From a virus, in IMG/VR virus record IMGVR_UViG_3300025093_000002, positions 1-64,000 of that record: a stretch of DNA of 64,000 nt. One strand, written 5' to 3'. The translations under genes were made by a program, and so were the position numbers. Numbering within the stretch: position 1 is the stretch's first letter; each line of letters begins with the position of its first letter. This document shows positions 1 through 36,826 of this stretch, piece after piece. The notes under the pieces are model-generated. The model ran no database searches. It saw only the letters and a list, made by a program, of their open reading frames with translations, and was not told the origin of the DNA.

Positions 1-87
1 GAGATGAGCGACCTTTTCATCATCATCGAAGCGTTCGGCGCAAAGCATGGCGTCACGTTTCACGACCGTCAGGAGCGAGCCGCATGA
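1..87 (+). CDS. ninB: NinB recombination protein, 3' end only (truncated by window)
   Basis: Identical to the 3' end of 41233..41631. Confidence 0.8.
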   Translation, partial: EMSDLFIIIEAFGAKHGVTFHDRQERAA

Positions 88-278
88 GCCTCCCCCTCAC
101 CGCCCCTAGCTCTGTCCGCCGCTCTAAAAAGCGTTGCGCGCAGTATGTCGAGACACACGAGCAGCTTCGGCGCGAAGTCGAGATTGCCCTCATGCGCCAG
201 TCCGATGGCCTTGGAGCATGGCTTGCCGATGCCCTTGAGGCTGAGATGGACTGCTTTGATGTGGAGGCGGCGGCATGA
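84..278 (+). CDS. Small hypothetical phage protein (near-identical copy at 41628..41816)
   Basis: ATGA coupling at both ends; the indel between copies keeps the frame. Confidence 0.65.
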   Translation: MSLPLTAPSSVRRSKKRCAQYVETHEQLRREVEIALMRQSDGLGAWLADALEAEMDCFDVEAAA

Positions 279-460
279 GCCATTTTGCCACTGCACTGGC
301 GATCATCGGTGTTGCATTCGCGGTCGCCTACTGTTCCGTTGAGGTGAACCGCAGCGGCCATGAAGCGAGGAAATTCGAAGCTGAGGCTTGCGAGCGCGCT
401 GGAGGGCGCATGGTCCGCAATTGGGGCCAGCTCGTCTGCGAATACCCAGGGGCGCGCTGA
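275..460 (+). CDS. Small membrane-anchored hypothetical protein
   Basis: Hydrophobic N-terminus; translationally coupled. Confidence 0.55.
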   Translation: MSHFATALAIIGVAFAVAYCSVEVNRSGHEARKFEAEACERAGGRMVRNWGQLVCEYPGAR

Positions 461-846
461 TGGGCTACGCTATCCGCCGTCACCCCGAAGCGTTCAGCCT
501 CTCGCCTACCGACAAGAAGCGGCCGGCGAAGAAGGATGCGGGATACCTGTCATGGCTGCACGAGCTTCCGTGCCTCGTGACCGGAGCGCGCCCTGTCGAA
601 GCCGCGCACGTCTCATATGCCGACCCTCGATATGGCAAGCGCGAACGCGGCAAAGGCGAGAAGGCCGACGATCGTTGGGCCATCCCGTTGAGCCGCGCAG
701 AACATAACCGCCAGCACACCATGGACGAGCGAGCCTACTGGCAGTCCGTTGGCATAGACCCGCTTCAGGTTGCCTTGGCCCTCTACGGCGTCAAGGGCGA
801 CAACACCATGGCGGAAATCATCATCAAGAATGCGAGGAAGTCATGA
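460..846 (+). CDS. DUF968-like HNH-fold nuclease
   Basis: YLSWLHELPCLVTG...EAAHV...KADDRWAIPLSRAEHNRQH pattern; TGATG-coupled start at 460. Confidence 0.7.
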   Translation: MGYAIRRHPEAFSLSPTDKKRPAKKDAGYLSWLHELPCLVTGARPVEAAHVSYADPRYGKRERGKGEKADDRWAIPLSRAEHNRQHTMDERAYWQSVGIDPLQVALALYGVKGDNTMAEIIIKNARKS

Positions 847-1154
847 CCGCCCCCGCCCCGAATGACGACCTGGTGCGCGAAATCGAAGACGCCGAATGGT
901 GGGAGCGAGGCGACGCCGAAGGCAACACCGTCGTCAGCATTGCGCCCGAAAGCCTCGCAGCGGCATACCGCGCCCAAGCCGAAAGGATTTCGGTGCTGGA
1001 GCGGGCGCTGGAGCCGTTCGCGAAGGAAGCACGGCTGTGGGCTGGTTACGACGAGGCCGAAATTCTCGTTGAGGGTTTTCCCAACGGCCCTGCAAGCATC
1101 ATCACCGTTGGTGACCTTTACCGCGCCCGCACCACCCTCACAGGAGCCCGCTAA
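843..1154 (+). CDS. Mosaic hypothetical early protein (counterpart 42181..42483)
   Basis: Shares MT-PAPNDDLVR, AQAERISVLERAL and GAR-stop blocks with the phage 2 gene. Confidence 0.7.
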   Translation: MTAPAPNDDLVREIEDAEWWERGDAEGNTVVSIAPESLAAAYRAQAERISVLERALEPFAKEARLWAGYDEAEILVEGFPNGPASIITVGDLYRARTTLTGAR

Positions 1155-1951
1155 TGGACAGCTTAGAACAGGCGCGGGAAGCGCTGATTTGGTATGAGAA
1201 CAACGCGGCGGGCTGTCGCCTCATTCACAGCGGCGGCGATGCGCATCGCAACGCTCTTGCGGCAGACGGTGGAACTCGCGCCCGCGAAGCCCTCGCCGCC
1301 CTCTCCCGTCCGGTGGAGGGGGTGAAGGGGGAGCCGCGCGCATTTCTCGTGACGGGCATCAACGAAAGACATGGCCGTATCATCGACGCGCGCAAGTATG
1401 ATCCCCGCCGCGATGATTTCTGGATGCCCGGCCAGAAAGAAAGACACACGGTCGAACCGCTGTTCCTCACCGCCCCGCCCGTCGCTGATAGCGAAGCCCC
1501 CTCCACTCCCGTAGATGGGGCGGGGGCGGAACCTGTCGCTTACGAGATATTCCGTAATGGCGTCTTTGAGGAAGTGTCTCGCATCGCCTTAAACGATGCC
1601 GACAAGCGCGCTGGCTACACGCAGAGGCCGCTCTACGCCGCGCCCCTCGCCAATCCAGAAGCCGAAGCACGGCTGCGGGAGCGGGTGGTGGAGTTGGAGC
1701 GCGAACAGAACTATCCGCTATTCCGCCAGCGGGCAAAAGAGCTTGTCGAACACTGGCAATCGCTCGACGAACCCGCCGAAGCCCGTCTCGCACAAGCCGA
1801 GCGGGGGCCAGCGGTGACGGAGGCCGTGGTTGAGACGGTCGGTGAGGAACTGTTCTCGCGCGGTCATACGAAAATCACAAAGCAGGATGTGCGAGCCGCC
1901 CTCGAAGCCGCCCTCCATCCCCAATCGGCGGCAGGGGAGGAAGGGAAATGA
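1154..1951 (+). CDS. Mosaic (Ea22-style modular) hypothetical early protein (counterpart 42483..43235)
   Basis: Several short conserved blocks separated by unrelated segments. Confidence 0.7.
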   Translation: MDSLEQAREALIWYENNAAGCRLIHSGGDAHRNALAADGGTRAREALAALSRPVEGVKGEPRAFLVTGINERHGRIIDARKYDPRRDDFWMPGQKERHTVEPLFLTAPPVADSEAPSTPVDGAGAEPVAYEIFRNGVFEEVSRIALNDADKRAGYTQRPLYAAPLANPEAEARLRERVVELEREQNYPLFRQRAKELVEHWQSLDEPAEARLAQAERGPAVTEAVVETVGEELFSRGHTKITKQDVRAALEAALHPQSAAGEEGK

Positions 1952-2142
1952 CCCCAAACCAGTGGCAAACATTAGAAGCGCTGAACAACTGCACCGCTCC
2001 TTGGGACGCGAAACATCCCAGCAACCGGAATGTTTTGGCGGCGCTTGGGAGGTTGGGGCTTGCCGAAAAACAACTTGGTTACCCCGTAGGTTGGGTCATC
2101 ACCGCCGCTGGCCGTCGCGCCCTTCAGGAGCGCCAGCCATGA
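1948..2142 (+). CDS. Small hypothetical protein, possible winged helix
   Basis: MTPNQWQTLEAL...LGRLGLAE...WVITAAGRRAL resembles wHTH; coupled to both neighbours. Confidence 0.55.
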   Translation: MTPNQWQTLEALNNCTAPWDAKHPSNRNVLAALGRLGLAEKQLGYPVGWVITAAGRRALQERQP

Positions 2143-2444
2143 AGACGGCAAGGGAGATAATCGCACGGGCCTACGACCGCGAGCAGGCGGCGCAGATGGG
2201 CGAACCGGACCCATGGCAGGACGGCACCGACCACCCCGAATGGGAAGGCAGTCTCGGATGCGCAGACGTGGCTATAGCCGCTCTCGCTGCCGAGGGGTTC
2301 AGCATCGTGGAGACAGGACTTGTCGAGCAAGCTTTCCGCGATGGCGTTGCCTACGGCACTGTCTGCGACGTAACCGATATCGATAAGGCATGGGAAACGT
2401 CTGCCGTTCGCGCCCGCTCTATAAGGAAGGGGAAGACAGAATGA
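2139..2444 (+). CDS. Mosaic hypothetical early protein (counterpart 43453..43761)
   Basis: Shared MKTAREIIA and IAALAAEGFSIVETG blocks; start at ATG 2139. Confidence 0.7.
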   Translation: MKTAREIIARAYDREQAAQMGEPDPWQDGTDHPEWEGSLGCADVAIAALAAEGFSIVETGLVEQAFRDGVAYGTVCDVTDIDKAWETSAVRARSIRKGKTE

Positions 2445-2767
2445 GCCGCGTCTTCACACCTGCGACTCTTGCACAGCGCTGGGAATGCTCCGACAAGCAT
2501 GTTCGCAATCTAATCATGGCCGGCGAATTGCCAGCGTTCCGCGTTGGCGGCAAATTGCTCCGCATCAAAGGCGCGGACGTGGAGGACTACGAATGCCGGA
2601 ATGGCGTCTCACTCGACTCGACGGAGATTTCTGCGTCACCTGGGACGATCCCAGCATCAAGGCCGGAAGGCGACGTTATCGACTTCACACCTCAGACCCA
2701 AAAGAAGCAGCCGCGCGCGCCGCGTCTCGATACGCAGCTTTCACGCGCCCGACTGGCAAGACGGTAG
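2441..2767 (+). CDS. xis: Excisionase (HTH_17/MerR-like)
   Basis: FTPATLAQRWECSDKHVRNLIMAGELPAFRVGGKLLRI; immediately upstream of int. Confidence 0.8.
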   Translation: MSRVFTPATLAQRWECSDKHVRNLIMAGELPAFRVGGKLLRIKGADVEDYECRNGVSLDSTEISASPGTIPASRPEGDVIDFTPQTQKKQPRAPRLDTQLSRARLARR

Positions 2768-3582
2768 CCGAGATATGGAAAGGCTACGTCGCGGACATGG
2801 AAGGCCGCGCCGTGGTCGGCACGATGAAGCACACATGGAAGGCGCTTCAGTTCCGGTTCGGGGGCTTGAACGGTGATGAGGTGTCGATTGCCGATTGCCG
2901 GGCACACACTGAGCAGCGGCGGCTTGACGGCATCAAGGATGGAACGATCCATACCGAACTAGGCCACCTGCGCATGGTTCTGCTATGGGCCGAAAAGCAC
3001 CGTCTCATTGACCGAGCGCCAGCAATCGAACGGCCGGCGAAACCAGAACCGAAGCACGATTACCTGACACGCGAGGAGGCCAGGCGATTAGTCGATGCTT
3101 CGAAGGCCGCGCATGTGGCACTCGCCATTGAACTGATGCTGGCGACCGGCGCGCGTAATGAGGCTGCGCTGACGCTGACATGGGATCGCGTAGACATGGA
3201 GCGGCGCATCATCCAGCTTCGAAACCCGTTCGATAGGGCGAAGCGGAAAGGGCGCGCAACCGTGCCGATGAATGACAAGATCCACACGGCTATGGGAAAG
3301 GCCAAGAGGGGGGCTTTGACGCCATTCGTGGTCGAGTGGGCCGGAAGACCGGTCAAGTCGATCAAGCGCGGCCTGAAGGCGGCGGGCGCCGAGATAGGAC
3401 GACCAGACGTGTCGCCCCACATGCTGCGTCATTCGGCGGCTGTATGGCTGGCCGAAGACGGGCATTCGATGAATGAGATTTCGCAGTACCTTGGTCATGA
3501 CGACGTGAAGACGACCACGCGCGTCTATGCCAGGTTCTCGCCAACGCACCTTCGGAAGCTCGCTGACAGCCTCAATTTCTGA
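2593..3582 (+). CDS. int: Tyrosine integrase 1
   Basis: TGARNEA, HMLRH, LGHDD and terminal Y catalytic motifs; GGAGG RBS at 2581 supports ATG 2593. Confidence 0.92.
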   Translation: MPEWRLTRLDGDFCVTWDDPSIKAGRRRYRLHTSDPKEAAARAASRYAAFTRPTGKTVAEIWKGYVADMEGRAVVGTMKHTWKALQFRFGGLNGDEVSIADCRAHTEQRRLDGIKDGTIHTELGHLRMVLLWAEKHRLIDRAPAIERPAKPEPKHDYLTREEARRLVDASKAAHVALAIELMLATGARNEAALTLTWDRVDMERRIIQLRNPFDRAKRKGRATVPMNDKIHTAMGKAKRGALTPFVVEWAGRPVKSIKRGLKAAGAEIGRPDVSPHMLRHSAAVWLAEDGHSMNEISQYLGHDDVKTTTRVYARFSPTHLRKLADSLNF

Positions 3583-3586
3583 GGCT

Positions 3587-3806
3587 CAGGTTCGGGTAAA
3601 CCTAGAGAGAAATATGTAAACACCAGCTAAGTGCTTGAAAGGATGGTGGGCGTGACAGGGATTGAACCTGTGACCCCTACGATGTCAACATTGCGCCCCT
3701 ACCGGAAACCCGCGAAACCCCGGCAAATGGGCACTACGCCATGGCCCTGTGGAGAACGATGTTCCGCTTCTGTCCGGTTTGCAGGTTTGGTCGAACCTAG
3801 AGGGAA
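3587..3806. promoter_or_regulatory. Putative integrase arm-type sites AGGTT-N6-AACCTAGAG at 3587-3611 and 3782-3806, flanking the core
   Basis: 20/25 identical dyad-containing repeats on both sides of the tRNA core. Confidence 0.6.
3644..3689 (-). other. attP core: 3' half of tRNA-Val(GAC), from the anticodon loop to CCA
   Basis: Reverse complement GTTGACATCGTAGGGGTCACAGGTTCAATCCCTGTCACGCCCACCA contains anticodon loop, T-arm and CCA; the 5' half of the tRNA is absent. Confidence 0.88.
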
Positions 3807-3816
3807 CTACGCACGC

Positions 3817-3966
3817 ATGCACATTAGACGCATCGAAACGAAAGGCACCCTCGTCCTCATCGCTGCCCTTATCGTAGCTCTATGGGCAGTGGGAGAGTGG
3901 GTGCTATCGTGGGGGCCTTGGCTTCTGAGTATGGCCGCGACGTTCGGCTTCATCGATACGCTCTAG
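3817..3966 (+). CDS. Small single-TM membrane protein (homolog 45418..45513)
   Basis: GTLVLIAALIVALWAVGEWVL is conserved at DNA and protein level in both phages. Confidence 0.55.
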   Translation: MHIRRIETKGTLVLIAALIVALWAVGEWVLSWGPWLLSMAATFGFIDTL

Positions 3967-4215
3967 AAGCTCATCCAGCCTGTGATTGATGCCCGAGGTG
4001 TTCTTGTCCGTCAGCGCATCCGCAATGCGCTTCACTTCTGCAATGAGACGATCCATCTGTTCCCGCTCGCCAAACCCCAAACCAATCCCCGCCAGGACGG
4101 CATCATTCGCTTTGGCTGGTGGCGTCGTCTGCCGAGACAGATATTTACCGGCCCCCGCCAGCAACAGGATAGCCCCGTAGATCGCGGCAATCCACAATTC
4201 AGGTGCAATGGTCAT
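3904..4215 (-). CDS. Lysis-cassette membrane protein (TM plus coiled coil)
   Basis: N-terminal TM; last gene of the lysis operon. Confidence 0.6.
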   Translation of the reverse strand: MTIAPELWIAAIYGAILLLAGAGKYLSRQTTPPAKANDAVLAGIGLGFGEREQMDRLIAEVKRIADALTDKNTSGINHRLDELLERIDEAERRGHTQKPRPPR

Positions 4216-25910: not shown

Positions 25911-26129
25911 ATGTCGATAGCCCGTCAGTTCAGGCCACCAGAAGCACCGAAAAGGATGGCGTCGGAAAAGCCGACGGCACCGAAGAAGCGTCCCAAGACA
26001 GGCGGGCGGAAGCCTTCTGCCGACCCGTCATTGGTGCTGACGCTGCGGCTCAAAACGTCGGAGGCTGAACGCTTGCCGAAGGATTGGCGCGCTCAGGCTG
26101 CTGATTTCCTGCGCGGTCTAGCCAGCTAA
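25911..26129 (+). CDS. Small ribbon-helix-helix (BrnA-antitoxin-like) DNA-binding protein
   Basis: GGRKPSADPSLVLTLRL...DWRAQAADFLR resembles the GRPK...VTLRL...GWQTRIN pattern; start uncertain. Confidence 0.45.
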   Translation: MSIARQFRPPEAPKRMASEKPTAPKKRPKTGGRKPSADPSLVLTLRLKTSEAERLPKDWRAQAADFLRGLAS

Positions 26130-26148
26130 TGGCTGCTTGTGTTGGGGG

Positions 26149-26331
26149 TTAGCGGGCCTGCCCGGCGCTGCAATCGACGGCAGGCCAGATCGACGGGTCA
26201 TAGCTTGCACCGTACGGGATGCCGTCGATTTTGAACTGAACGCGAAGAAATTTGGCTGCCCACGCAAGAACGATGACCTTCCACGCTGGGAAAGGCTGAA
26301 GTTTCAGATTGTTCGGGTGATAGGGACGCAT
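26149..26331 (-). CDS. Hypothetical protein
   Basis: AAGAGAGG RBS and a 60-aa ORF in late orientation. Confidence 0.5.
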   Translation of the reverse strand: MRPYHPNNLKLQPFPAWKVIVLAWAAKFLRVQFKIDGIPYGASYDPSIWPAVDCSAGQAR

Positions 26332-26958
26332 GGCTTTAGCCTCTCTTGTTCGCTCAAAAGAAAACGGGCCGCTCCGGCAAAGAGCAGCCCGCCATCGCAA
26401 CCAAACTACAGGACAGCTTGGTATCTCTCTGTTGCCCTTGTGGGGTGGAACGGGACGCTAGAAAAGGGCCGCGACGAGTAGGTGCGCCAGACCCATGATT
26501 GCCAAAAGCGGCACAATCGGACGGGTGACATCCGCCAGCGCCCACTTCAGCCTTTTCATCGTCATCGGATCGCCCATTGCCGTCCCGTATCTGCTTTGCC
26601 CTGATAGGGGCTGATGAAAGGTGCGAGGCGACAGGAGCTGCTATACGGCTGGGGCGCGCTTTCGAGCAGCACATTCACGCCCGTAATCCGTCCTTCTGTG
26701 CCTCGCCACGAGGAACGGCCAGGAACGAACCCCAACCTTCACGACATCGCTGCCGCCTCGCATGTAGTTCCCACCAGTGTCCCGCTAGAAGCTAAGATGC
26801 TGTTTCGTGTGTCGGGTGGTGGGGTAGTGCTGCGAGGCGGCATTCGCGCGATATGCCTTTGCCTAGTTGAAGGGCTTATCCGCGCCGCTGTTCATGGGCA
26901 CGGACCTCACATTCCGTTGGCGACAAATCGCCTGTATCGTGGACCTTTTGGAGGTCAG

Positions 26959-27153
26959 ATGCCGCGCCTTTCAAACACAGCACCGAACCGAATTCTTGCT
27001 GCCGATGTGACAATCTTGCAGCGAGACCCGCTTCTTGCCCTGCTCAATCTCGAAACCGACGATGGCGCTATCGAACTGGCAATGAGCCAAGGCGTCGTGG
27101 ACATGCTTTTCGAGGTTCTCGCGGGGCTGGATGAAAGTGGTCGCCAGATTTAG
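26959..27153 (+). CDS. Hypothetical moron
   Basis: GGAGG RBS, 64 aa. Confidence 0.5.
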   Translation: MPRLSNTAPNRILAADVTILQRDPLLALLNLETDDGAIELAMSQGVVDMLFEVLAGLDESGRQI

Positions 27154-27206
27154 GACCAAATCACCCCAGCTACCATACACCTATCATACTCGCGTGAAGG
27201 GTCAAC

Positions 27207-28145
27207 TCATTTCCGCACAGCGATGCGGTCTGGCTGTGCATAATTCGTCATAAGCCACATGACCGCCAAATCCTCTAGATGGCCCCGTAGAGCGTCCGTG
27301 GTGCTGTATCGAGCACGCTGGCTAGGTCCTGCTACCTCTTCGATAGAACGGCCCTCACCGGCGATTGCAGCGACCAGACGATACCCGCGAAGACCGATGT
27401 AAACGCGGCACCTGTCCAACTCTTGCGCAGCCGTTACAAGACGGTCACTGATGGGGTCACGATAACCACCGCCGTCAACCGGCTCGCGGGTGTAGTCCAT
27501 AGCACCAGCGCCGGCTCCACCTGTTTGCTCCCAGAACTTCCTAAAACGTTCAGCAGCGCGAACCTGGGCAGGATGCAGCAGACCACGCGCCTCAAGCGTC
27601 GAGATGGCACTTTCCTTGATGTTGCGAGTGGCCGGAATACGACGGATGTTGCCGTACTTTCCCTCTGGGTGGTCACGGGAAAAATCGGGGTTGTCGACCA
27701 CATCGGTGATGGTCTCAATCTTGGACGGTAGGGCCTTTATCGCCTTCATTTCGTCGCGGTCCAGCTTGGCGCTTGCGGCGCGGGCGTCTGCCCTTGCCCA
27801 TGCGTCCGCAACGCGCGTATCCTCGACAGGAGCAGCTTTGCGCTCGACCAGTTTCAGCAGGTCCGACAAGCACCCATACGGGCGCCAACTGTTCTTGCCC
27901 TTTTCGCGGAACTTCCGGCTTTTCACCGCAAGAACGATATGCCCGACCTGAAGCCCATCATCTGCCTCGATAGGCTCGTGCCCGCACTCAAGAACCTCTA
28001 GCGCGCGTTGAAGGCGGGGAATGCCACCGCTACCTGTCCCGCCCGCGCATCGGTCGTCCGCATCCATCTGTGCCCGCGCTTGGTCCAGCGCAGTGCGATA
28101 GGTCGCCATGTCCGCCAGTCGATAAGTCTCGCCGCATTTCAGCAT
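27207..28145 (-). CDS. Putative late-transcription regulator (DUF6456-like, Q position)
   Basis: RGLLHPAQVRAAERFR...MDYTREPVDGG...EGRSIEEVA; last early gene before packaging. Confidence 0.65.
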   Translation of the reverse strand: MLKCGETYRLADMATYRTALDQARAQMDADDRCAGGTGSGGIPRLQRALEVLECGHEPIEADDGLQVGHIVLAVKSRKFREKGKNSWRPYGCLSDLLKLVERKAAPVEDTRVADAWARADARAASAKLDRDEMKAIKALPSKIETITDVVDNPDFSRDHPEGKYGNIRRIPATRNIKESAISTLEARGLLHPAQVRAAERFRKFWEQTGGAGAGAMDYTREPVDGGGYRDPISDRLVTAAQELDRCRVYIGLRGYRLVAAIAGEGRSIEEVAGPSQRARYSTTDALRGHLEDLAVMWLMTNYAQPDRIAVRK

Positions 28146-28187
28146 CTGCCTTCGCCGCCCTCTTCTTTGCCGCCGCTCTTTGCCTGA

Positions 28188-28673
28188 TTACCGTGCTGGC
28201 CGTAGATATCGCCCGTCTGCCGCCCGCCTCTTTCGATGCGCAGCAACGCCGTGCATCACCGTCGTGTGGTCTTTGCCGCCAAGCCGATGACCGACCTGAG
28301 GCAGCGAGAACCGCGTCTGGCGGATGGCCCAATACATGATTGCGTGCCGGGCCTTCACGACCTGTCTGTTGCGCCGCTCGGATATGATTTCGGCCGGGTG
28401 AACTCCGAACACCTTGCAGATGCGGGCCATGATGATGGCAATGCGCTGGTTCTGTGCGCCGTAGCTGAAGCGCTGGAGAACCGCGCTTGCTTGCTGCGCT
28501 TCCATGGCCGCCATCTTGCGACGGGCTGCGATGCGCTCCATCTCCGCGACTTCCGAGCGCATCATGACGACGGCCGGCAGCTCGCGCTTGGCGACTGGCT
28601 CCATTTCGCGCTGCGGGTTCGATACCTTGAAGCGCGCATTCGCCATGGTCTTGGATGAACTGACTGCGAACAT
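28188..28673 (-). CDS. DnaA C-terminal (domain IV) HTH protein
   Basis: RRNRQVVKARHAIMY...SLPQVGHRLGGKDHTTVMHG. Confidence 0.85.
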   Translation of the reverse strand: MFAVSSSKTMANARFKVSNPQREMEPVAKRELPAVVMMRSEVAEMERIAARRKMAAMEAQQASAVLQRFSYGAQNQRIAIIMARICKVFGVHPAEIISERRNRQVVKARHAIMYWAIRQTRFSLPQVGHRLGGKDHTTVMHGVAAHRKRRAADGRYLRPAR

Positions 28674-28678
28674 ACTCG

Positions 28679-29047
28679 TTACCCCTGTGCTGCTATCGGC
28701 CCGAGCAGCTTGCGCACCTGAGCGCGCCGCGCGGCCATCTGTTCTTCGGTGAGTTGTGGAATGTCTTCGGATGCCTCTTTCTCGGCTTCCGTGGGCGGGT
28801 TCTTCATGGCGAACTCCTGCCGGCGCGCTTCCTTGGCGAACTCTGCCGTGGAAGGCGCATAGCGGAGCGTATCGCCCGGAACTTCGCCGCGAATGTATCG
28901 GCGGCACGTCTCGATGACGGCGCTCTGGTCGATGCCCTTCACTGCGATTTCAAACGCCATGAGCAATCCCTTCGGGTCAGTGTCTTTGGATAGGGGCCGT
29001 GAGTTCAAAAGGAGCAGGAGCGCTTTCGCGGCTGTGTCCATAGCCAT
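28679..29047 (-). CDS. Putative helicase loader (lambda P-like position)
   Basis: YAPSTAEF motif; overlaps the replication-initiator fragment. Confidence 0.55.
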   Translation of the reverse strand: MAMDTAAKALLLLLNSRPLSKDTDPKGLLMAFEIAVKGIDQSAVIETCRRYIRGEVPGDTLRYAPSTAEFAKEARRQEFAMKNPPTEAEKEASEDIPQLTEEQMAARRAQVRKLLGPIAAQG

Positions 29048-29372
29048 TCTCCAGAAGGTCGTAGGCGGCGCCGAATACGCCTCGCGGGCGCTCGCGCTGG
29101 GTTGGTTCGGGTTCGTCCTCCCACCGGCCCTGATGCAGCCATGTGCGGGCGTGAGGGATGAATTGAGGGTCTTTGGCAGTGAGCGCCGGAAGCTGGCGGC
29201 GAAGGCCCTGAATGATGTCACTCGGGCTCGTGCCGCGCTTCATTTCCTTCTGCCACTCTGCCAATGCGGCGCGCTTGGCTACCCGGCGCGGATACAGGCT
29301 CCAGAACACGTCGAACGTGGCCTTTGCTTCTGCCTCTGCGTCTTCACGTGCAAATCGCTCGGCAAGTCCCAT
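28977..29372 (-). CDS. Phage replication initiator, C-terminal domain only
   Basis: FDVFWSLYPRRVAKRAA...FIPHARTWLHQGRWEDE; no N-terminal HTH. Confidence 0.7.
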   Translation of the reverse strand: MGLAERFAREDAEAEAKATFDVFWSLYPRRVAKRAALAEWQKEMKRGTSPSDIIQGLRRQLPALTAKDPQFIPHARTWLHQGRWEDEPEPTQRERPRGVFGAAYDLLENGYGHSRESAPAPFELTAPIQRH

Positions 29373-29649
29373 TGTTAAGACCTCATTATCTGCTTAATCA
29401 TCAATTACGTGGATGAAGGCGTAGAACCCGGCTAGGGCGCCCAACAAGTAGCTTTGGTTGCCGATCAGGATGCCGGAACAGAAGACGACTATGGTGAGAG
29501 CGGCACGCTCTTTGCGGCGGGTCATCGAGTACGAGCCGCTTCAGCAAAGGCGTGGATGACCTCGAATGACACCGCCATGCAGGTCCACGCGAAAGCGCCG
29601 GCCAGACCCAAACAGAACGCACCAATCGCGAACTCAAGGAGCTTGCTTC

Positions 29650-30962
29650 TCATCGCGCGCCCCTTTGCCGACGCGCATGGTCGTCGCGCATAATCTGGTT
29701 CAGTTTCTCGACCTGCCTCGCCTCGTCAGGCTCCCATAGAGCGGAGGCTAAGGGCTGGTACCAAGGCCAGTGCCCGTAAAGAGCGCGGACCCAACAACAT
29801 CCGAAAAGAACCGCCGGCGCCGTGATAAGGATAAGCAACCCAATCATCGGCCTGCCTCGTCGTCTGCTAAGAGCGGCGCTCCGGGAGCGTAGATCGGTGC
29901 GCGCTCGACGCTGGCATCGACGACAGCGAACACGACCAGAACCGCGACAATCAACATCCCAAGCAGCATCGGCATGAACATCGCTTCAGCAGCCTTCTCG
30001 GCTCGCTTGCTGCGTTCAAGGCGCTCGATTAGCTCTTGGGTTGTGAGATGGCTTAGATCGGTTCTCATAACGGCGCCTCATCGTCAGGCGTCATGGGCCG
30101 GCGCGGAGCCTTTTCCCAATCAAGGATGAGCTGCGCTCGCTCTTCCCCGGTCATCTTTGAAGAACCGGGCAGCCAATCGAAATGGACGCGCTGAACACCC
30201 TTCTCCAACCACATGTAAGCCACCTTCCGGCCAACAGGCCCGAGCATGTTTCGGAACGCCGTCAGCATGTAATTCAGGTCAGTGATTTTGCGCCGCAGCA
30301 TCAACTCTTGCGCTTCGAGTCTTTCAACCTTGAGTTCCAGCCGCTCGATTTCTAAACTCATATCGACAAGCGTATCGACTACCTGGGTGTTTTGCTCGTA
30401 GCTCATGCCTGCCTCGCTTTAGTCATGGCCGCGTAGACGCGGCGGATGGTTTCTGAGGGTGACGGGTAGTCGGCAAACGGCGTGATGGCGGTTACGCCAT
30501 TCTCGCGCATCACGTTCATCGCTTCCTCTAAGCCGGCGAGAACCATCGCGTCGGTCGGCTTGTCATGAAGCGTCGCCGAGATCGGGGCGAAATCGTAGTA
30601 GTGCGCGCTGGGAAGCTGCCCCTTCCTAACGTCGTCCTTGTGTCCGCTGCCGCCACAATACGGGCACGACATGCCGACATCGTTCCCGTCGGGTGATAGA
30701 CTGGTTCTCATTTTTCGCCCTCAGTAGAGAGAGCCGCGTCGACCATATGGGTGTAGATGCCCGTCCAATCGTCTGCGGTCTTTAACGATGCATAGCCGGA
30801 AGCAATCATCTCGGACGTGGGCTCGCGCATCGCCTTTATCGCGGCTCGGGCAAGTCGCAACTCAAGGCGTTCATTGCCCTTGAGATGATGGGCTAAAGCG
30901 CCGAAGTTCTTGCCTTCTTCCAAAATGGCCTTGCCGACCTTCTCAACCATGCCTTGGTTCAT
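29650..30962 (-). CDS. Cluster of five coupled small hypothetical genes (29650-29847, 29844-30068, 30065-30406, 30403-30711, 30708-30962)
   Basis: Consecutive ATGA overlaps in the rightward early operon. Confidence 0.6.
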
Positions 30963-31264
30963 GCCGCCCTCTCCTGCTCTGAAGCCACCTGAACGGCCCA
31001 ATCGATTGCGTCCTGCGCGCTGCGAAGAATGACCACGTCAGGTCCGCGCCATTTGTCCGCGAACGCCTGCTGGTTCTCGTTCAGCTTCTTCCCGTAGCCT
31101 TTGGCGCTCGACTTCACCTCGACAGGCCAGCAGCGGCCACGGAAGCCCACCAAGGCGTCAACAGGCCGGTCCAGCGGCTCGACGCTGAACCCGCACTGGC
31201 GCAGCGCCGCGAAGACTTCCTTCTCGGCAACGTCACGGCGCTTGGCGTAGCGGTTCAGGCTCAC
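30959..31264 (-). CDS. VRR-NUC/PD-(D/E)xK nuclease (Holliday resolvase-like)
   Basis: YAKRRD...PVDALVGFRG...VEVK...LNENQ; GTG start at 31264. Confidence 0.75.
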   Translation of the reverse strand: MSLNRYAKRRDVAEKEVFAALRQCGFSVEPLDRPVDALVGFRGRCWPVEVKSSAKGYGKKLNENQQAFADKWRGPDVVILRSAQDAIDWAVQVASEQERAA

Positions 31265-31315
31265 TCGTCGTTCTCCGTCATTTCGGGGCAGATCCATGCA
31301 GCGAGGCCAGCAGCC

Positions 31316-31711
31316 TTATCTCGCAGCCAGATCGCAATCTTCATCCGCCGTTCGACGCTCAAGAAGCGCACGATAACGGGCGGTCTGTTCAATGAATGCG
31401 GCATGGTCTTTCCTCGCTCTTGAGAGTTTCGCGCGATTGGCTTTCGCCACCTCAGCCGCCCTGTGAAGTTCAAGCATTTCCCGAAATTCGACGTGCGCGG
31501 CTTCCTTGTGCCAGAAGCTTCGGACGCGCCGTTCGGTCCATTGTTTCCGTGGGTCATTGCGGTAGGGGAAAAGCTTGGCGAGCAGCTCGTAAGCCGTGCC
31601 GATGGTGGCTTTGACGTTGCCGCCACCGCCGATTTCCCTGACGTATGACCGTGCCATAGCTACGTCGTGCATGTGCTTCTGCTCGTCCGTAAACGCGGGT
31701 GACTTGTCCAT
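31316..31711 (-). CDS. Hypothetical early regulator
   Basis: WTERRVRSFWHKEA HTH-like segment. Confidence 0.55.
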   Translation of the reverse strand: MDKSPAFTDEQKHMHDVAMARSYVREIGGGGNVKATIGTAYELLAKLFPYRNDPRKQWTERRVRSFWHKEAAHVEFREMLELHRAAEVAKANRAKLSRARKDHAAFIEQTARYRALLERRTADEDCDLAAR

Positions 31712-32066
31712 GATTGCGGGCGTCCTTTCGGTCCATGTTGCTGTTCATGAGCAACACGCCTGACGAAAGGAAGACTGACGTGGATACCTTCGGACGAGAC
31801 GCGCGAGACCTGCCTGCAAGCGATGACGCGCGCCGTTCCGGTGAAATGGCTGCCGGGGCCATAGAAACGCCGGCTGTAATTCTGGACTGGCATTACGCCA
31901 GATCGCCTTTCGCTATGGAGCTTGCTCGCGAGAGGCTTGGTTTGCTTGGCACCGCCGCGCCGAGCACAGGAGACGGAACCGACATGTGGTCCCAGTACGG
32001 TTCCGTCTCCGCCCCTGCTCCGGTCGCCGCAAACTGCAATAGGCGTCTGTGGGTGGTGCGCTGATG

Positions 32067-32699
32067 TCATGCTGCGACCTCGAACAGGTCTGCCTTGACG
32101 TTGCTGCCCCACTGGTCGGCCATAGCCGCAGCAATGCCGGCGAACGTCTCGGAGCGGAGCTTCTTACGGTCAGCGGAAGGAGGCATACGGAAGACACGCT
32201 GCTCACGGCCCTCGACAACATTGGTCGGGACGAGCGCCGGAAGATTTTTCAGCCAGAGGCTGGTGGCCTTAGTCTCACCATGACCAAACTGCCATGGTTG
32301 GATTGTCTGCGTCGGGTCCGGGATGCCAAACAGCCGCTTAGGATGCCCAAGCATGATGGGGTTCTCGACCGCGATGCGCGGGATTGGAGCGTTCCAGAGC
32401 AGCATGAAGAACTGCGCAGCCGCACCCATCTTAGCCCATCGGTCGGCTTCCGGGCCATTGTCCTTGTTCATGCCCGCGTAGAGATGCTTGGCCCCGCTGT
32501 TGGCGAGGTAGGTGCATTCTGGGTGGGCAATCATCAAATCCCAGCGCTGCCCATAGGCAGCGGCTATCGCATCGCCATGAATGTGGAACTGGCTGCCGTC
32601 ATCGGCCGGTTGGATATCGCAGGACCAGGCGTCGTGGCCACGCTCACGAAAAGCGCGGCGGACAGCACCCGAACACTCGCAGGCGACGAGAACACGCAT
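32067..32699 (-). CDS. Short DNA cytosine methyltransferase-like protein
   Basis: VLVACECSG (motif I), HPECT (PC-like motif), ENP, QPWQFGH. Confidence 0.8.
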   Translation of the reverse strand: MRVLVACECSGAVRRAFRERGHDAWSCDIQPADDGSQFHIHGDAIAAAYGQRWDLMIAHPECTYLANSGAKHLYAGMNKDNGPEADRWAKMGAAAQFFMLLWNAPIPRIAVENPIMLGHPKRLFGIPDPTQTIQPWQFGHGETKATSLWLKNLPALVPTNVVEGREQRVFRMPPSADRKKLRSETFAGIAAAMADQWGSNVKADLFEVAA

Positions 32700-33919
32700 T
32701 CAGACAGCCCCCGCCCTACGCGCCACGTCTTCAGGGCTGCGCATGGTGTAGCGAACGGCGTGGTATTCATCGCCGCTGAGCTCGATGTAGCCGGGACGCG
32801 CGCTCTGACGGGGCTTCTTCCAAGCGGTGAACGCCTTGCGGGCTTCCCAGCCAATCATGGCCGCGCCGATAGAAACGCAGACGAGCAACCAGACGATTTC
32901 GTTGAAGTGCTGTTCCATCTACTCGCCCTCGTTTTCGTAAGGTGCGTTCCAGCCGGGTATCTGGCGGGCTTTGCTGCCGGAGGTGATGCGTTCGTGCGCG
33001 TCTCGGATGTCGCCGTCCCATTCGCGCGATGCTGCGATGATGCTCTCGCACCGGTTGCGCTCTGCCTGGATAGCCTTGGCGATAGCTTCGAGAACATCGG
33101 CCTTGAACGGCGCGCGTTGGGGCATGGCCTCTACAGCGGCAGCAGCGGTTGTCAGGATATCGGCGGGCATGTTCTTGAGCATCTACTCGTCCTCGCCTTT
33201 GAGCTGCTTGTGAACGCGGTTGCGCTCGGCAAGGATGGCCGCGACGGCAACACGAACCAGAGGCGTCTTATCGTGTCCGCCAAGACGTATGCGGTCGTGG
33301 GTTTTGAAGTCGTCCGGTGGCGGGCATCCAATGACGGCTTCACGGGCGGCACACAAAACTGCTGCGTCAACTCGTTCGTCGCTCATATGGTCGCTCCATG
33401 AAGACGGGTCGCGGCACGGACTTGGGGTTGGTTTTCGAGGAACGTCCGAGCCATGCCGCTCATCGAAGGCGCACAGGACGAGAGAAGATCGCGCGAGTGT
33501 TCACGCCCTTCGATGTTGAGATTTGCGCCCCTGACGACCTGGAGGAGGAAGCCGCCAGGGGCATTCCACGTCGCCGGGAGGAGCGAGCGCGTGGATGGGT
33601 GATTGGTGTGGAGAGGCATGGGTCAGCGCTCCCCGGCTTCGGAGAGGATTGCTGCTGCAATGCGCTGGCCATGGCGATACCAGCTTGGTCCGAATGCATA
33701 GGCGTTAGTTTCCGGGCCTACACCCTCGGAGCGCGCTATCTCGGCCGCGCGCTTCATGCCTTCTGCGAAACAGCCGTTCAGATGACCTGCGATGTAGTCA
33801 CGCATTTCGGCATGCGACATCGGTGCGCTCAAGACGTGCGCCATTTCACGCGCGAGTTCCGCCCTATCTTTGCTTGGGGTGCCGGTCATGCGCTCGTTCC
33901 GGTCGGTGTTCTCGCTCAT
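32700..33919 (-). CDS. Cluster of small hypothetical genes (32700-32918, 32919-33182, 33183-33386, 33623-33919)
   Basis: Tightly packed ORFs in operon orientation. Confidence 0.55.
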
Positions 33920-34209
33920 GACGAGGCCTGTTCGATGGAGGGGGTATGAGCGGGAGGGGTGGGAAGAGGCATCCAGTGCGTGAATGTGTCGGCTTCGAAG
34001 TTGTCGCCAGCCTCATATGCTTCGGCGTAGCTATCGCGGACGTACGGGTCATAAGTGTCGTCAGGCCACACCCACAACTGCGCCTCAGCGTTCCATGCGA
34101 CGAAGACGAGCGGCGACGAAGTGCCGAAAGTGGACGGCTCACGATAGGCCAAGATTGGCGTCCCGTTCTTCGGCGCGGTCTCAATCGGCTTCCAGGTGTT
34201 CTCGCTCAT
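33916..34209 (-). CDS. DUF551-like protein
   Basis: WKPIETAPKNGT...THWMPLPTPP. Confidence 0.8.
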   Translation of the reverse strand: MSENTWKPIETAPKNGTPILAYREPSTFGTSSPLVFVAWNAEAQLWVWPDDTYDPYVRDSYAEAYEAGDNFEADTFTHWMPLPTPPAHTPSIEQASS

Positions 34210-34249
34210 GCGATGGCTTCCTTTCCGGTAGTGGTGGGGAGGGAAATGC

Positions 34250-34684
34250 TCATGCGGCGTTCTGCTCAAAATCTTCCGATTGAACCGAACCAGACCGATC
34301 GACGCCGCTTTCGAAGATCCACTGCCGAAATTGAGAAGGCTCAACGTGGGACTTGATGAACTCAAGCAAAGCGCGATCACGAGCGGATTGCAGTTCTTCC
34401 CGCCGCGCGCGCTCAATGCGTCCGCGCTTATGGGTGATGAGTTGCAGCGCCGTTCTCTTATATTTGAGCGAACGCCTGGCACGAGCAGGCCACGTCGGGT
34501 CCGAGAAACGGCAGACGCCGAGAGCCTTCAACTCCAGCTCGTACTCAATCTCTGCGACGGCCGACTGGAGATAGGCATAGGCGTCGTTGCAGTCTTCGAC
34601 TGTTTCGATTTCATCGACAGACCAACCAGCCGCGATTTCGATGTCGGGGATGAAGATGTCCTCGAGGTGCTGGCTCTCGCTCAT
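34250..34684 (-). CDS. Hypothetical protein
   Basis: 144-aa ORF coupled to the upstream gene. Confidence 0.6.
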   Translation of the reverse strand: MSESQHLEDIFIPDIEIAAGWSVDEIETVEDCNDAYAYLQSAVAEIEYELELKALGVCRFSDPTWPARARRSLKYKRTALQLITHKRGRIERARREELQSARDRALLEFIKSHVEPSQFRQWIFESGVDRSGSVQSEDFEQNAA

Positions 34685-35211
34685 GCTGCGGCTTCCCCTT
34701 GGCGTGTTGCGCGGGCGGGGTCCTGCTCATGAAGCGAGCTGATGTAATCCGGCAGTTTCCCGTCGCGAAGCAGGCGGCGGAACATCACGCGGGCGGCGAG
34801 GCCATACCCGGCATGGGTCTGCGCTTTCGCGGAAATCTCGAACGTCTGGAGCGAGCCGTATCCGAGCTCGGCGTATGCACGTTCACGCCCGCCGAACTCT
34901 TCGACAAGCTCATCGAACGGGAGCTTGGGCGACGGGCCTTCGTCCTTCGGCAACCAAAACGGCTGCCGGCGCGATGCGTCGATGATGAACTGCCAGATGG
35001 GCGGCGAGGACTTGAACCAACCACGCTCAATGCGGATCGGATCGAAGCACTGGAGAAGAATGGCTTCTCCGAGGAAAGCGCCCTTCAACTGCAACATCAT
35101 TTCGATGCCACCGGGAAGCCAAGTCCCCAAGGTCCGCTTGCGGGCATTCACGTCGGCAGATGCGCCGATGCGGATAGGTCCGCCATTCGTGGGCTGGGCG
35201 ACGTAAATCAT
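34681..35211 (-). CDS. GIY-YIG/T5orf172-like protein, degenerate
   Basis: IYVAQ...IRIGASADVNAR...EAILLQCF...RGWF. Confidence 0.65.
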   Translation of the reverse strand: MIYVAQPTNGGPIRIGASADVNARKRTLGTWLPGGIEMMLQLKGAFLGEAILLQCFDPIRIERGWFKSSPPIWQFIIDASRRQPFWLPKDEGPSPKLPFDELVEEFGGRERAYAELGYGSLQTFEISAKAQTHAGYGLAARVMFRRLLRDGKLPDYISSLHEQDPARATRQGEAAA

Positions 35212-35441
35212 GCCGCCACCGACCGACGCTTGGCCTCGTCCGCCTCAATCCAGTCCATAACGCGCTGGAAGCTCTCGATGCGAAAATTCCGGCCGTTCTT
35301 CACCTCGGCCAGAAACTTGCTGTCGTTGACGGCTTCTTTCGACATGCCCGAAAAGCTCAGGCCGTATCGACTTGCGTGCGCCTCCGCTCGTTCAAGGAGC
35401 TTCTGGCGGATGAGGTCGGAGGTGATGTGCTTCGTCTTCAT
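35208..35441 (-). CDS. cro: Cro-like repressor
   Basis: Small HTH divergent from cI; KEAVNDSKF motif. Confidence 0.75.
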   Translation of the reverse strand: MKTKHITSDLIRQKLLERAEAHASRYGLSFSGMSKEAVNDSKFLAEVKNGRNFRIESFQRVMDWIEADEAKRRSVAA

Positions 35442-35447
35442 AACCCC

Positions 35448-35524
35448 ATATGGCGGGACGCATCCCGAAAAGTCAAGGGACGCATCCCGCTACCGTCAAA
35501 ATATTTTTCATGGGATGGAATCCC
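35448..35524. promoter_or_regulatory. OR operators (GGGACGCATCCC at 35455-35466 and 35477-35488; imperfect third at 35512-35524) and leftward promoter TTGACT-N17-CCATAT
   Basis: Palindromic GGGA-N4-TCCC repeats between divergent cro and cI. Confidence 0.75.
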
Positions 35525-35526
35525 GC

Positions 35527-36198
35527 ATGAATGACGCGATGCACAAACGAATCAAGGAACGGCTTGAAAGCCTTGGGATGTCCGCAGCGGCGGCTTCAAG
35601 GAAGGCCGGCCTGTCGCCCGACTTCATTCGGGACATGATGCGGAAAGGTGCTAGGCCAGGAGCGGAAAACCTCGCCAAGTTGGCGAAGACGTTAAAAACG
35701 TCGCCCGAATATTTACTCCAAGGTAACGAGCCAACGCGGACCATAGACGTAGTTGGGATGCCGGTGATCGGGGTAATCGAGGCGGGGCAGTTTCGAGACA
35801 TCACGCTCATCAATCAGGACGAAGAGTATCCGATGGTGAACGTCGTGCAGGACGATCGCTTTCCGCATGCTCGGCAATACGCGCTGAGGGTGAGCGGCGA
35901 TTCGATGAACAAACTATTCCCGGATGGCAGCTACGCGATTTGCGCGGAGTTTGCCGATACTGGCATGCGCCTGAAGGACGGCCTGGTGCTGCACGTCGAG
36001 CGCTACATCGCAGGGACGCACCTCGTGGAGACGACGTTGAAGCAGGTCGAAAGCTCGAACGGAAAGCGCTTCCTTGCGCCGCGAAGCACTAATCCTCGTC
36101 ACAAGCCCGTCGAGATAACCGAAGACACCGACTTGTCCGAACTCAAGGTGCGCGGCCTCGTCATTGGCAGCTACACTCCCCAGCATTTCGGCTTCTGA
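35527..36198 (+). CDS. cI: CI-like repressor (HTH plus S24 peptidase); alternative start 35515
   Basis: N-terminal HTH; ALRVSGDSM catalytic Ser; TTLKQ catalytic Lys. Confidence 0.9.
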   Translation: MNDAMHKRIKERLESLGMSAAAASRKAGLSPDFIRDMMRKGARPGAENLAKLAKTLKTSPEYLLQGNEPTRTIDVVGMPVIGVIEAGQFRDITLINQDEEYPMVNVVQDDRFPHARQYALRVSGDSMNKLFPDGSYAICAEFADTGMRLKDGLVLHVERYIAGTHLVETTLKQVESSNGKRFLAPRSTNPRHKPVEITEDTDLSELKVRGLVIGSYTPQHFGF

Positions 36199-36201
36199 GC
36201 A

Positions 36202-36297
36202 TTGCGTCTAATTTTTAGACGGTAGATATACGGTCCTTATCTTTCTTCTCTAAGAGTTAGATATAGAGACCATATATCTTGCGTCTAATTTTTAGAC
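36202..36297. repeat. Two 19-bp direct repeats TTGCGTCTAATTTTTAGAC (36202-36220, 36279-36297) around an AT-rich spacer; candidate origin
   Basis: Exact repeat, each with the internal dyad GTCTAA-TTT-TTAGAC; spacer contains TAGATATA twice. Confidence 0.8.
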
Positions 36298-36677
36298 TCA
36301 ATGGTTTTGCGAGGGCGCTTCCCGTTCGGCGGGTTCTTTCGCACTTTGGCGACGAACGGCTTCGTCCGCTCTCTCACCCACTTCTCATCCCCCATGAACG
36401 GCATCGTGTAGATCTGGCTCTCCGCGTGATAGCGGGTGATGAGCAGGAAGCCGGCTTCCTCAAGCTCGACTAGCGCGGTCGCCAGCGTCGTGCGGCTCAT
36501 GTGCGCGTGCTTCGTCAACCAGGTGTAGCTGGGCTTCAACTCTTCCCTCGCCTCTGGCTGAAAGAACGTCGCGAATAGCAGGCCGACGCGCACCGCGCTC
36601 GCGCCCACTTCATTGCACCGCGCGAGCTCGTAGAGCCAATCGACGCGGTTCTGGTTCCATCGCTGCACATAATCCAT
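36285..36677 (-). CDS. Winged-helix (HTH_36-like) protein resembling a replication-initiator N-terminus
   Basis: KPSYTWLTKHAHMSRTTLATALVELEEAGFL. Confidence 0.7.
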   Translation of the reverse strand: MDYVQRWNQNRVDWLYELARCNEVGASAVRVGLLFATFFQPEAREELKPSYTWLTKHAHMSRTTLATALVELEEAGFLLITRYHAESQIYTMPFMGDEKWVRERTKPFVAKVRKNPPNGKRPRKTIESKN

Positions 36678-36690
36678 CCCTCGCTTGTAA

Positions 36691-36764
36691 GGGAACGGTC
36701 CCGTTCGCGCAATCCAAATAATCGGGATTGGTCCCTTGACGCGGGATTTGTCCCGTGCTTATCT
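36691..36764. promoter_or_regulatory. OL operators (GGGA-N4-TCCC at 36691-36702, 36724-36735, 36743-36754) overlapping promoter TTGACG-N17-TTATCT
   Basis: Same palindrome as OR, three copies. Confidence 0.78.
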
Positions 36765-36826
36765 GTTCTGGACAAAGCGAGCGGCCCCGACGACTTCCCG
36801 CCGCTCTCAACACCGGGAGAACCGAA

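Follow-up and report, generated by a model that had tools for sequence, protein, structure and literature searches.

Early accessory genes of a small lineage of temperate Rhizobiales phages appear to be built from short conserved linkers and a large pool of unrelated cassettes

The window analyzed here is the 64,000-nucleotide stretch at positions 1 to 64,000 of IMG/VR virus record IMGVR_UViG_3300025093_000002, a 92-kb circular contig (1-99 is identical to 91990-92088, a 99-bp overlap) that holds two phage genomes of ~41 and ~50 kb, each with its own integrase. The two phages share ~2.8 kb, in 30 short blocks that all lie in early regions, and the densest run of these blocks is formed by two small gene arrays, one in phage 1 (843-2451) and one in phage 2 (42181-43768). 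Both arrays are chains of translationally coupled genes on the plus strand, with stop/start overlaps of the form ATGA or TAATG (Table 1). Each sits in the early operon between a recombination module (Gp157, RecT, SSB, NinB and DUF968 in phage 1; Gp157, a predicted Rad52-fold protein, SSB, NinB and HNH in phage 2) and xis-int, which is the position of the lambda exo-xis region.

The two arrays were compared using blastn (word size 11), which returned 12 collinear same-strand blocks of 16-64 bp at 89-100% identity, mostly with E-values of 1e-8 to 1e-22 and thus far beyond chance. An earlier note on this DNA had listed 12 collinear blocks, and every one was recovered. The segments between the blocks, which the note had judged unrelated by eye, were aligned locally against 500 shuffles; 10 of the 11 pairs lie at shuffle level (z from -1.0 to +1.2), and the second A5 segment pair is marginal (z = 2.7). 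The segments are thus not diverged homologs, an outcome that the note had named as refuting its idea. Offset changes between successive blocks are 21, 30, 27 (+9), 57, 174, 84, 111, 24, 33, 63 and 66, every one a multiple of 3, for which the chance probability is 5.6e-6. The note's remark to that effect is true but carries no special signal, because the blocks sit in continuous or identically coupled reading frames and the pattern is a trivial consequence of coding.

Most of the blocks (7/12) are, as had been stated, inside genes; they are in frame and lie at domain boundaries of A2, A3 and A5. The proposal that sub-gene modules framed by conserved DNA are swapped is supported for these, but the other 5/12 are gene junctions. 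Each junction block carries the last codons of one gene, a GGAG/GGAGG-type Shine-Dalgarno sequence 7-10 nt ahead of the next start, the stop/start overlap and the first 8-12 codons of the next gene. Given that the ribosome-binding site and the next start codon lie inside them, conservation of the junction blocks has an ordinary RNA-level explanation. Comparison with relatives adds linkers in A3 that are absent from phage 2 (V2 and most of R, Table 1). Judged from these alignments, A2, A3, A4 and A5 appear to be built of ~15 short linkers (25-65 bp, near-identical in all members) and a large pool of unrelated cassettes. Apart from the five junctions, the linkers code for connectors between domains or for short helices. 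The cassettes are 25-110 codons long or whole small genes, each an independent small domain.

Relatives L082-L089 come from a search with a Q-linker pattern in which the third position of each codon was degenerate, which avoids selecting for synonymous identity. Matches were two contigs of IMG/VR, the GTDB genome of Mesorhizobium sp. YIM 152430 and five metagenome records. After duplicate removal, nine independent arrays remained including the window's two, three of them from one metagenome project (FLYM01). The seven further loci (L001, L082/L085, L083/L087, L084, L086, L088 and L089) carry the same linkers at 90-100% nucleotide identity with different cassettes between them; of the 225 pairwise high-scoring segment pairs among the nine loci, 208 do not reach 80 bp, with identity at ~96%. 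L001 is phage Mae-JY35 (PP438426), which has the same blocks and nothing else in common between them, L084 is a prophage in the Mesorhizobium isolate genome, and L086, L088 and L089 are FLYM01 metagenome contigs.

The two-phage circle may represent a cointegrate or have been joined in assembly, and several of the relatives come from metagenomes, so chimeric assembly of related metagenome phages might be invoked for the whole mosaic. We find this hardly credible: the genome of an isolate, Mesorhizobium sp. YIM 152430, and the deposited genome of a phage, PP438426, show the same architecture, and open reading frames are intact across every junction.

Table 1. Genes, linkers and shared blocks of the two arrays and genes next to them. 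Partner positions and identities are from blastn of array 1 against array 2.
Feature	Position	Strand	Partner in array 2 and identity	Basis and remarks
DUF968 (HNH-related) gene, phage 1	460-846	+		Pfam DUF968 E=2e-9; PHROG HNH endonuclease family E=8e-8; directly upstream of the array, in the same slot as the phage 2 HNH gene
A2, 103 aa, mosaic	843-1154	+		Open reading frame, ATGA overlap at both ends; N-terminal, middle and C-terminal linkers, two variable segments; linkers common to phage 2, L083, L084 and L089
A3, 265 aa, central gene, predicted beads on a string	1154-1951	+		Linker order N, V, D, V, R, Q, C; five cassettes
A4, 64 aa, whole-gene cassette slot	1948-2142	+		Product ends ..ERQP, then stop
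A5, 101 aa, mosaic	2139-2444	+		N linker MKTAREII, middle linker AALAAEGFSIVETG, C linker ..REGKTE
Excisionase-like helix-turn-helix gene (xis), phage 1	2441-2767	+		Pfam HTH_17 E=4e-9; integrase reading frame next, ending at 3582
Linker 1, upstream gene/A2 junction	843-879	+	42181-42217, 94.6%	ATGA overlap, first 12 codons of A2
Linker 2, intragenic in A2	972-1021	+	42331-42380, 98%	AQAERISVLERALxPF
Linker 3 (N), A2/A3 junction	1124-1187	+	42453-42516, 89%	GGAG Shine-Dalgarno, TAATG overlap, A3 codons MDSxEQAREAL; core 1142-1187 given earlier
Linker 4 (V), intragenic in A3	1289-1336	+	1289-1322 plus 1321-1336 with 42591-42629, 97% and 94%, 9-bp indel	ALAALSRPVEGVKGEP; other V allele SPSTPVDGVGAEP
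Linker D, A3	1470-1497	+	42706-42733, 100%	APPVADSEA
Linker V2, A3	1497-1538	+		PSTPVDGAGAEP; common to L082, L084 and L089, not phage 2
Linker R, A3	1631-1699	+	1673-1688 with 42735-42750, 100%, 16 bp; alone weak, E=0.015	PLYAAPLANPEAEARLRERV; peptide in the A3 linker series PLANPEAEARLRERV; whole linker common to L084, L089 and L082; phage 2 has only the last 16 bp
Linker Q, A3	1773-1824	+	1780-1813 with 42926-42959, 91%; 1796-1821 with 43053-43078, 92%	AEARLAQAE + GGPAVTEA; split by a 35-aa cassette in phage 2; 27-bp core invariant in 7/8 loci, the sole deviating copy being phage 2
Linker C, A3/A4 junction	1898-1947	+	43179-43228, 100%	ALEAALHPQSAAGEEGK; GGAGG Shine-Dalgarno, ATGA overlap
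A4/A5 junction linker	2127-2164	+	43441-43478, 100%	..ERQP stop, GGAG, ATGA, MKTAREII
A5 intragenic linker	2277-2319	+	43528-43570, 100%	AALAAEGFSIVETG
A5/xis junction linker	2413-2451	+	43730-43768, 95%	..REGKTE stop, GGAGGGG, ATGA
Gp157-like gene, phage 2	39574-40146	+		Pfam Sipho_Gp157 E=1.5e-19; first of the recombination module
Predicted single-strand annealing protein, Rad52 fold, phage 2	40143-40841	+		AF2 model and Foldseek
SSB, phage 2	40841-41224	+		Pfam SSB E=8e-19
NinB/Orf recombination mediator, phage 2	41233-41631	+		Pfam NinB E=3e-30
HNH endonuclease gene, phage 2	41813-42181	+		Pfam HNH E=1e-5; PHROG HNH E=1e-16; directly upstream of the array
B2, A2 counterpart	42178-42483	+		Open reading frame
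B3, 250 aa, A3 counterpart	42483-43235	+		CxxCxGxG zinc-ribbon cassette, phrog_14593 cassette; D and R2 linkers contiguous; Q split
B4, whole-gene cassette slot	43232-43456	+		Unrelated to A4; ends ..ERQP
B5, A5 counterpart	43453-43761	+		Open reading frame
B6, small gene	43758-43961	+		Unrelated to phage 1 xis
Tyrosine integrase, phage 2	43933-44943	+		Pfam Phage_integrase E=6.5e-8; unrelated to phage 1 integrase

Cassette diversity was surveyed in 33 A3-family proteins, which were parsed at the linkers and the pieces clustered. This gave 128 cassette segments in 97 clusters, of which 85 have a single member (Chao1 ~700). At least one cassette is common to 85 protein pairs and all cassettes to none, a result that is partly built in because the database is clustered. 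The combinatorial reassortment in relatives that the earlier note had proposed is borne out: in 17 of the 18 cassette pairs that co-occur, each member is also seen without the other. The two C-linker alleles (K-stop and KP-stop) likewise both combine with both V-linker alleles, and in the A4 slot the eight loci that have it carry eight unrelated genes (42-114 aa) whose products all end ..ERQP. Phages meeting in one cell or sample share only the linkers, and cassettes occur in many combinations between the same linkers.

The explanation we favor, with a probability of about 0.65, is that homologous recombination of the annealase type, acting on the linkers, exchanges the cassettes. Homology arms of 35-50 nt suffice for recombineering, and a linker-cassette-linker piece would behave as a natural substrate of this kind. 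A phage annealase (Rad52-like, RecT or ERF, with NinB/Orf) would pair homologies of 30-60 nt, lengths at which phage annealases are good and RecA is poor, and Rad52-like recombinases, together with Orf and Rap, cause mosaics to form on homologies that are short and diverged (PMC3945230). Such pairing would replace, insert or delete a cassette in frame. The products would survive because junction linkers bring translation signals along and internal linkers, as flexible connectors of autonomous domains, would tolerate any neighbor. Linker uniformity could then have two causes, the constraint on junctions as translation-initiation regions and the loss from the exchange pool of lineages whose linkers drift. 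The annealase would presumably be needed for exchange.

Gains and losses of single units are visible between loci. The D linker and R tail are contiguous in phage 2 and separated by a 174-bp unit in phage 1, the Q linker of phage 2 is interrupted by a 35-codon cassette, and the V linker is doubled in L083, where the copies flank a zinc-ribbon cassette. In L089, A2 and A3 are separated by two additional small genes and a zinc-ribbon extension precedes the A5 start, and in L088 the A3 string is divided into two genes. From Mae-JY35 (L001 4619-4669) A2 is cleanly absent, and the start-junction linker (ATGACCAC) abuts the A2/A3 junction linker; the annotated A3-like coding sequence therefore gains six N-terminal residues (MTTSPL) from another frame of the junction DNA.

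Such a record might also be left by illegitimate recombination and selection (the Hendrix-type account), in which random joins are sieved for in-frame survivors and linkers are identical only because the scaffold gene is young and its common ancestor recent. The family is indeed tiny, with only 30 proteins in 1.84 billion representatives matching an A3-family profile and 1 of 401 sampled genomes of the order carrying the array; some cassettes stand in non-equivalent slots, and 6-bp direct repeats (CGAAGC) lie on both sides of the 174-bp unit. Random joins, however, would not keep hitting the same ~15 short segments in 97 cassette clusters, the block edges are sharp and coincide between independent loci, and shared cassette c9 (79% nucleotide identity) and xis (74%) are much older than the linkers adjoining them. 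As a general account of the arrays, random joining is improbable.

Synonymous sites were compared over amino-acid-identical codon pairs. Within nine linker families, 118 of 1821 pairs differ (6.5%), and the figure is 6-8% in each of seven locus pairs checked singly. Non-linker homologous DNA of the same loci differs at 100 of 674 (14.8%, range 3-53%; Fisher p=4e-10 against linkers, pooled over non-independent pairs). The earlier note had named ordinary synonymous change in the linkers as a refuting outcome, and the linkers do not gather such change as adjoining coding DNA does. Synonymous differences amount to 3% in the NinB tail (phage 1 vs phage 2), 27% in xis (L084 vs L086) and 53% in cassette c9 (L082 vs L083), the last in a pair whose linkers differ at 6% (p=3e-6). 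We regard as sound the conclusion that linker divergence is, as far as these loci indicate, uniformly low whatever the age of the adjoining DNA, which peptide-level constraint does not predict.

This bears on a by-product account, in which the linkers are conserved for functions of their own (translation signals at junctions; internal peptides such as oligomerizing helices or partner contacts) and recombination merely falls where homology remains, with neither selection for shuffling nor a match to the needs of the annealase. The Shine-Dalgarno spacing and stop/start overlap of all five junction linkers fit such an account, as do the helical R and Q linkers of the model described below, the A5 middle motif, which is conserved as protein and diverges normally in distant relatives, and the lambdoid Ea22, which keeps an N-terminal segment and coiled coil with varying C-terminal domains (PMC10834534). 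It does not suit internal linkers that are near-invariant synonymously beside homologous DNA with 27-53% synonymous differences, the modeling of V and D as disordered connectors, or Mae-JY35, which keeps two junction linkers as DNA after loss of the gene between them. We consider the by-product account unlikely.

An AlphaFold (AF2) model of A3, built with 22 family members, has a predicted TM-score (pTM) of 0.27. In it the V and D linkers have predicted local distance difference test (pLDDT) scores <50 and are disordered, R and Q form helices, and small folded units separate the linkers. A3 is accordingly modeled as beads on a string rather than one fold, and the idea of the linkers as one folded scaffold was not supported. 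Other signals were tried as well. Linker codon usage is not unusual, since third-position G+C (0.76 in linkers, 0.69 in cassettes and 0.70 in background) is not AT-shifted. A common recognition word was not convincing: CGAAGCC occurs 4 times in array 1 (0.5 expected) and once in array 2, and recurs because Glu-Ala codons are repeated. No Rfam family was found at E<=0.1 in 1-4000, there were zero promoter-like sites in 1-3700, and the four terminator-like sites in 1-3700 (3.7 expected) are at chance level.

An annealase gene is present in every locus with upstream sequence, as a Rad52 fold (predicted, phage 2), RecT (phage 1, L082 and L084) or ERF (annotated, Mae-JY35). The gene at 40143-40841, which the earlier note had called a Rad52-like annealase, occupies the position of RecT in phage 1. 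Its AF2 model (mean pLDDT 74) gave RAD52 and Mgm101 as the top 15 of Foldseek against the PDB, the best being human RAD52 (E=6e-7, probability 1.0), and its product is predicted on this basis to have the N-terminal Rad52 fold (beta-beta-beta-alpha). No Pfam family, including Rad52_Rad22, was matched at E<=1e-3, a profile against Protein Data Bank (PDB) sequences gave no match, and its Atlas neighbor cluster has PF04098 in 14% of members, which is a lead only. The Rad52-like designation stands as far as fold, but arrays also occur with RecT or ERF. The protein has more than 2600 ordinary homologs in rhizobia.

In five loci, an HNH gene (phage 2, Mae-JY35 and L084) or a DUF968/HNH-related gene (phage 1 and L082) lies directly ahead of the array. 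Nuclease-driven homing might be read from this, with the product cutting linkers or empty sites of a co-infecting genome and donor repair copying the cassette, as in intronless homing. L083, however, has no recognizable nuclease gene ahead of its array (Pfam and PHROG), one small nuclease is unlikely to recognize ~15 different linkers, and the place after NinB suits a Rap-like recombination nuclease equally (PMC3945230). Homing is therefore very improbable as the driver.

Several points weigh against exchange at the linkers as we propose it. All evidence is comparative and no recombination event was observed; the DNA comes from 9 loci only, and very few cassettes have a defined function. The window's two phages share no cassette and therefore give no sign of recent exchange with each other. 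Junction linkers have a sufficient RNA-level reason for conservation, and the motif AALAAEGFSIVETG of the A5 middle linker recurs across a broader protein family. Besides its non-independent pairs, the synonymous comparison includes three locus pairs in which the DNA outside the linkers equals them in conservation (3-8% synonymous differences). Finally, cassettes c1 and c4 are found in differing slots, P0011 is an A3 front joined to an A5 tail, and the 174-bp unit is bounded by 6-bp repeats; not all exchange therefore takes place at equivalent linkers, and microhomology or illegitimate events contribute.

A stronger form of linker-based exchange would make the linkers a selected recombination scaffold, ~15 ordered 'recombineering arms' sized for the phages' own annealase, with uniformity kept by selection for access to the pool. 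We hold this to be a tentative possibility, more doubtful than not. If true, the scaffold would let a lineage assemble multi-domain early proteins slot by slot from a pool of hundreds of domains, and would parallel diversity-generating systems, with recombination as its means and domain composition, not residues, as its target.

Most cassettes have no match in Pfam or PHROG. Those that can be recognized include a Lar restriction alleviation cassette in P0015 (40 bits, the only cassette over Pfam's Lar threshold), WYL, a DnaJ-type CxxCxGxG zinc ribbon and an R67-type DHFR-like SH3 domain; phrog_14593 is a 68-residue family (profile length) and, like the Lar, WYL and DHFR_2 matches, a stand-alone family. 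Of the two window arrays only phage 2 has the CxxCxGxG zinc ribbon, as the earlier note had said; it reads CPTCNGTG in gene 42483-43235. The fused small domains might conceivably act early in infection on host functions such as restriction, and an anti-defense role of the cassettes is at best conjectural. The last cassette of P0049, an A3-family protein of the representative library, lies between the Q and C linkers and is Pfam DHFR_2 (R67-type dihydrofolate reductase, SH3-like) at E=2e-21. For a likeness of Trp-rich cassettes to DUF551, and of the Mae-JY35 C-terminal cassette to MazZ, Pfam gave no match; neither is claimed. The first A3 cassette (1188-1288, LIWYENN..CRLIHSGGDAH..) recurs in P0006, P0008, P0010 and P0021, which are proteins without linkers, so cassettes circulate outside the linker scaffold too. 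In P0006 and P0008 a Lar-type zinc ribbon (PF14354) lies ahead of the match.

The array-bearing lineage is narrow, and the array is an accessory part of an early leftward-type operon in a small lineage of temperate Rhizobiales phages. Linkers were found at the DNA level in 0 of 80 IMG/VR loci chosen for a NinB relative (46-77% protein identity), so the array is not general to NinB-bearing phages. Alignment-based scans of A5 relatives in viral contigs and of A3 relatives in GTDB genome contigs gave no confirmed match. A C-linker pattern run over 401 genomes of the Mesorhizobium host's order matched only the YIM 152430 genome. Mae-JY35 is recorded as a Microcystis phage; all relatives found point to Rhizobiales. 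In L083 (reverse strand), A2 (1379-1864 of the reversed locus) and A3 (1864-2811) are followed by two small genes and a 709-aa candidate primase-polymerase (by N-terminal sequence) rather than A4-A5-xis-int, and part of the array therefore travels in another kind of element. L086, L088 and L089 have the same linkers with differing A4 and A5 cassettes, and, being from one metagenome project, indicate that variant arrays co-occur in one sample set.

The principle of exchange is already known from modular theory, mosaic Ea22, PeSLs and gp38 motifs. The closest setting is the lambda exo-xis region, which has mosaic ea22 as its largest gene (PMC7093339, PMC10834534). There too, small accessory genes stand in the early operon between recombination genes and xis-int, and one larger gene has a common N-terminal segment and coiled coil with C-terminal domains that are unrelated between phages. 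The array, however, has no sequence or Pfam kinship to ea22 (no Ead_Ea22 signature for A3/B3 at E<=0.1 or for ten relatives at E<=0.05), offers 5-6 slots in each gene instead of a variable end or two, and keeps only parts of 25-65 bp that are DNA-uniform across the lineage. The modular theory in its form with linker or boundary sequences (Botstein 1980, cited in PMC3157838), together with relaxed Rad52-like recombination (PMC3945230), also describes short conserved DNA between exchangeable modules, with relatives in differing combinations and an annealase, Orf/NinB and a Rap-like nuclease encoded alongside. Exchange of ~100-bp pieces within genes has been reported in this context of modular exchange (PMC3945230, PMC3157838). 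Classical modules, however, are gene- or operon-sized with homology at gene boundaries, whereas here 7/12 linkers are intragenic and in frame and one linker set is reused by ~100 cassette types.

PeSLs of T4-type phages are intergenic units of a sigma-70-type early promoter plus stem-loop terminator, all of one kind (PMC2839356). Like the linkers, they are small conserved cassettes across a hyperplastic non-essential region, where recombination shuffles, inserts and deletes the flanked reading frames; unlike them, the linkers are coding or translational-coupling junctions, ~15 sequences in fixed order, and have no promoter or terminator units. In the gp38 adhesin of T-even phages (PMC3157838), conserved glycine-rich motifs alternate with hypervariable segments and exchanges fall in or near the motifs. 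There the motifs form a structural core and loops vary in a receptor-binding protein, whereas the array varies whole independent domains in an early accessory gene, not a virion protein, and its linkers are modeled as connectors, not core.

Polyvalent proteins (PMC5512222) similarly combine many unrelated small domains per polypeptide in variable architectures, some of them anti-restriction (Lar-like). They are usually far larger, however, and are defined by recurrent enzymatic domains; the A3 family is multi-domain and variable in architecture, with a conflict-related function recognizable only in the Lar-like cassette of P0015. We know of no description of a conserved DNA linker grammar in polyvalent proteins. 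In polymorphic toxin loci (CdiA-CT after VENN, Rhs tips after PxxxxDPxGL), a short junction motif encoded by conserved DNA precedes unrelated, exchangeable cassettes and supplies the homology for their replacement. These have one junction and one C-terminal cassette per gene, encode toxins with immunity genes and, unlike the array, are bacterial rather than phage early genes. The locus has neither the Ead_Ea22 signature nor promoter/terminator cassettes nor a motif-formed structural core, which define the named families. What appears from sequence to be new is the multi-slot, sub-gene form, with ~15 distinct, mostly intragenic linkers in order, ~100 observed cassette types and three adjacent genes.

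For forty years it has been argued whether phage mosaicism arises by homologous exchange at short linkers or by random joins and selection, mostly over gene-sized lambdoid modules. The present locus offers a compact 1.6-kb test bed, with about a dozen defined linkers and mutually unrelated cassettes, a cultured lysogen (Mesorhizobium sp. YIM 152430), an isolated phage (Mae-JY35) and three annealase classes with much the same surroundings otherwise; it would allow homology length, linker identity and recombinase dependence each to be altered. Domain-level shuffling, known for tail fibers and toxins, operates in early accessory genes too, where it yields fusions of many small domains and is likely a reservoir of host-takeover or anti-defense activities.

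Elsewhere in the window, the NinB 3' end and the next small reading frame (41545-41820) match window positions 1-282 at 95.7% (blastn). A 62-bp segment at 96.8% identity (3844-3905 vs 45439-45500) lies ~260 bp past one integrase and ~500 bp past the other. About 18 more collinear blocks of 30-540 bp at 83-100% identity join the early regions at 26115-39440 and contig positions 77726-89656, several of them crossing gene junctions (e.g. 32026-32079 and 34678-34717), and the pattern of linkers and replacement may therefore reach beyond the operon first flagged.

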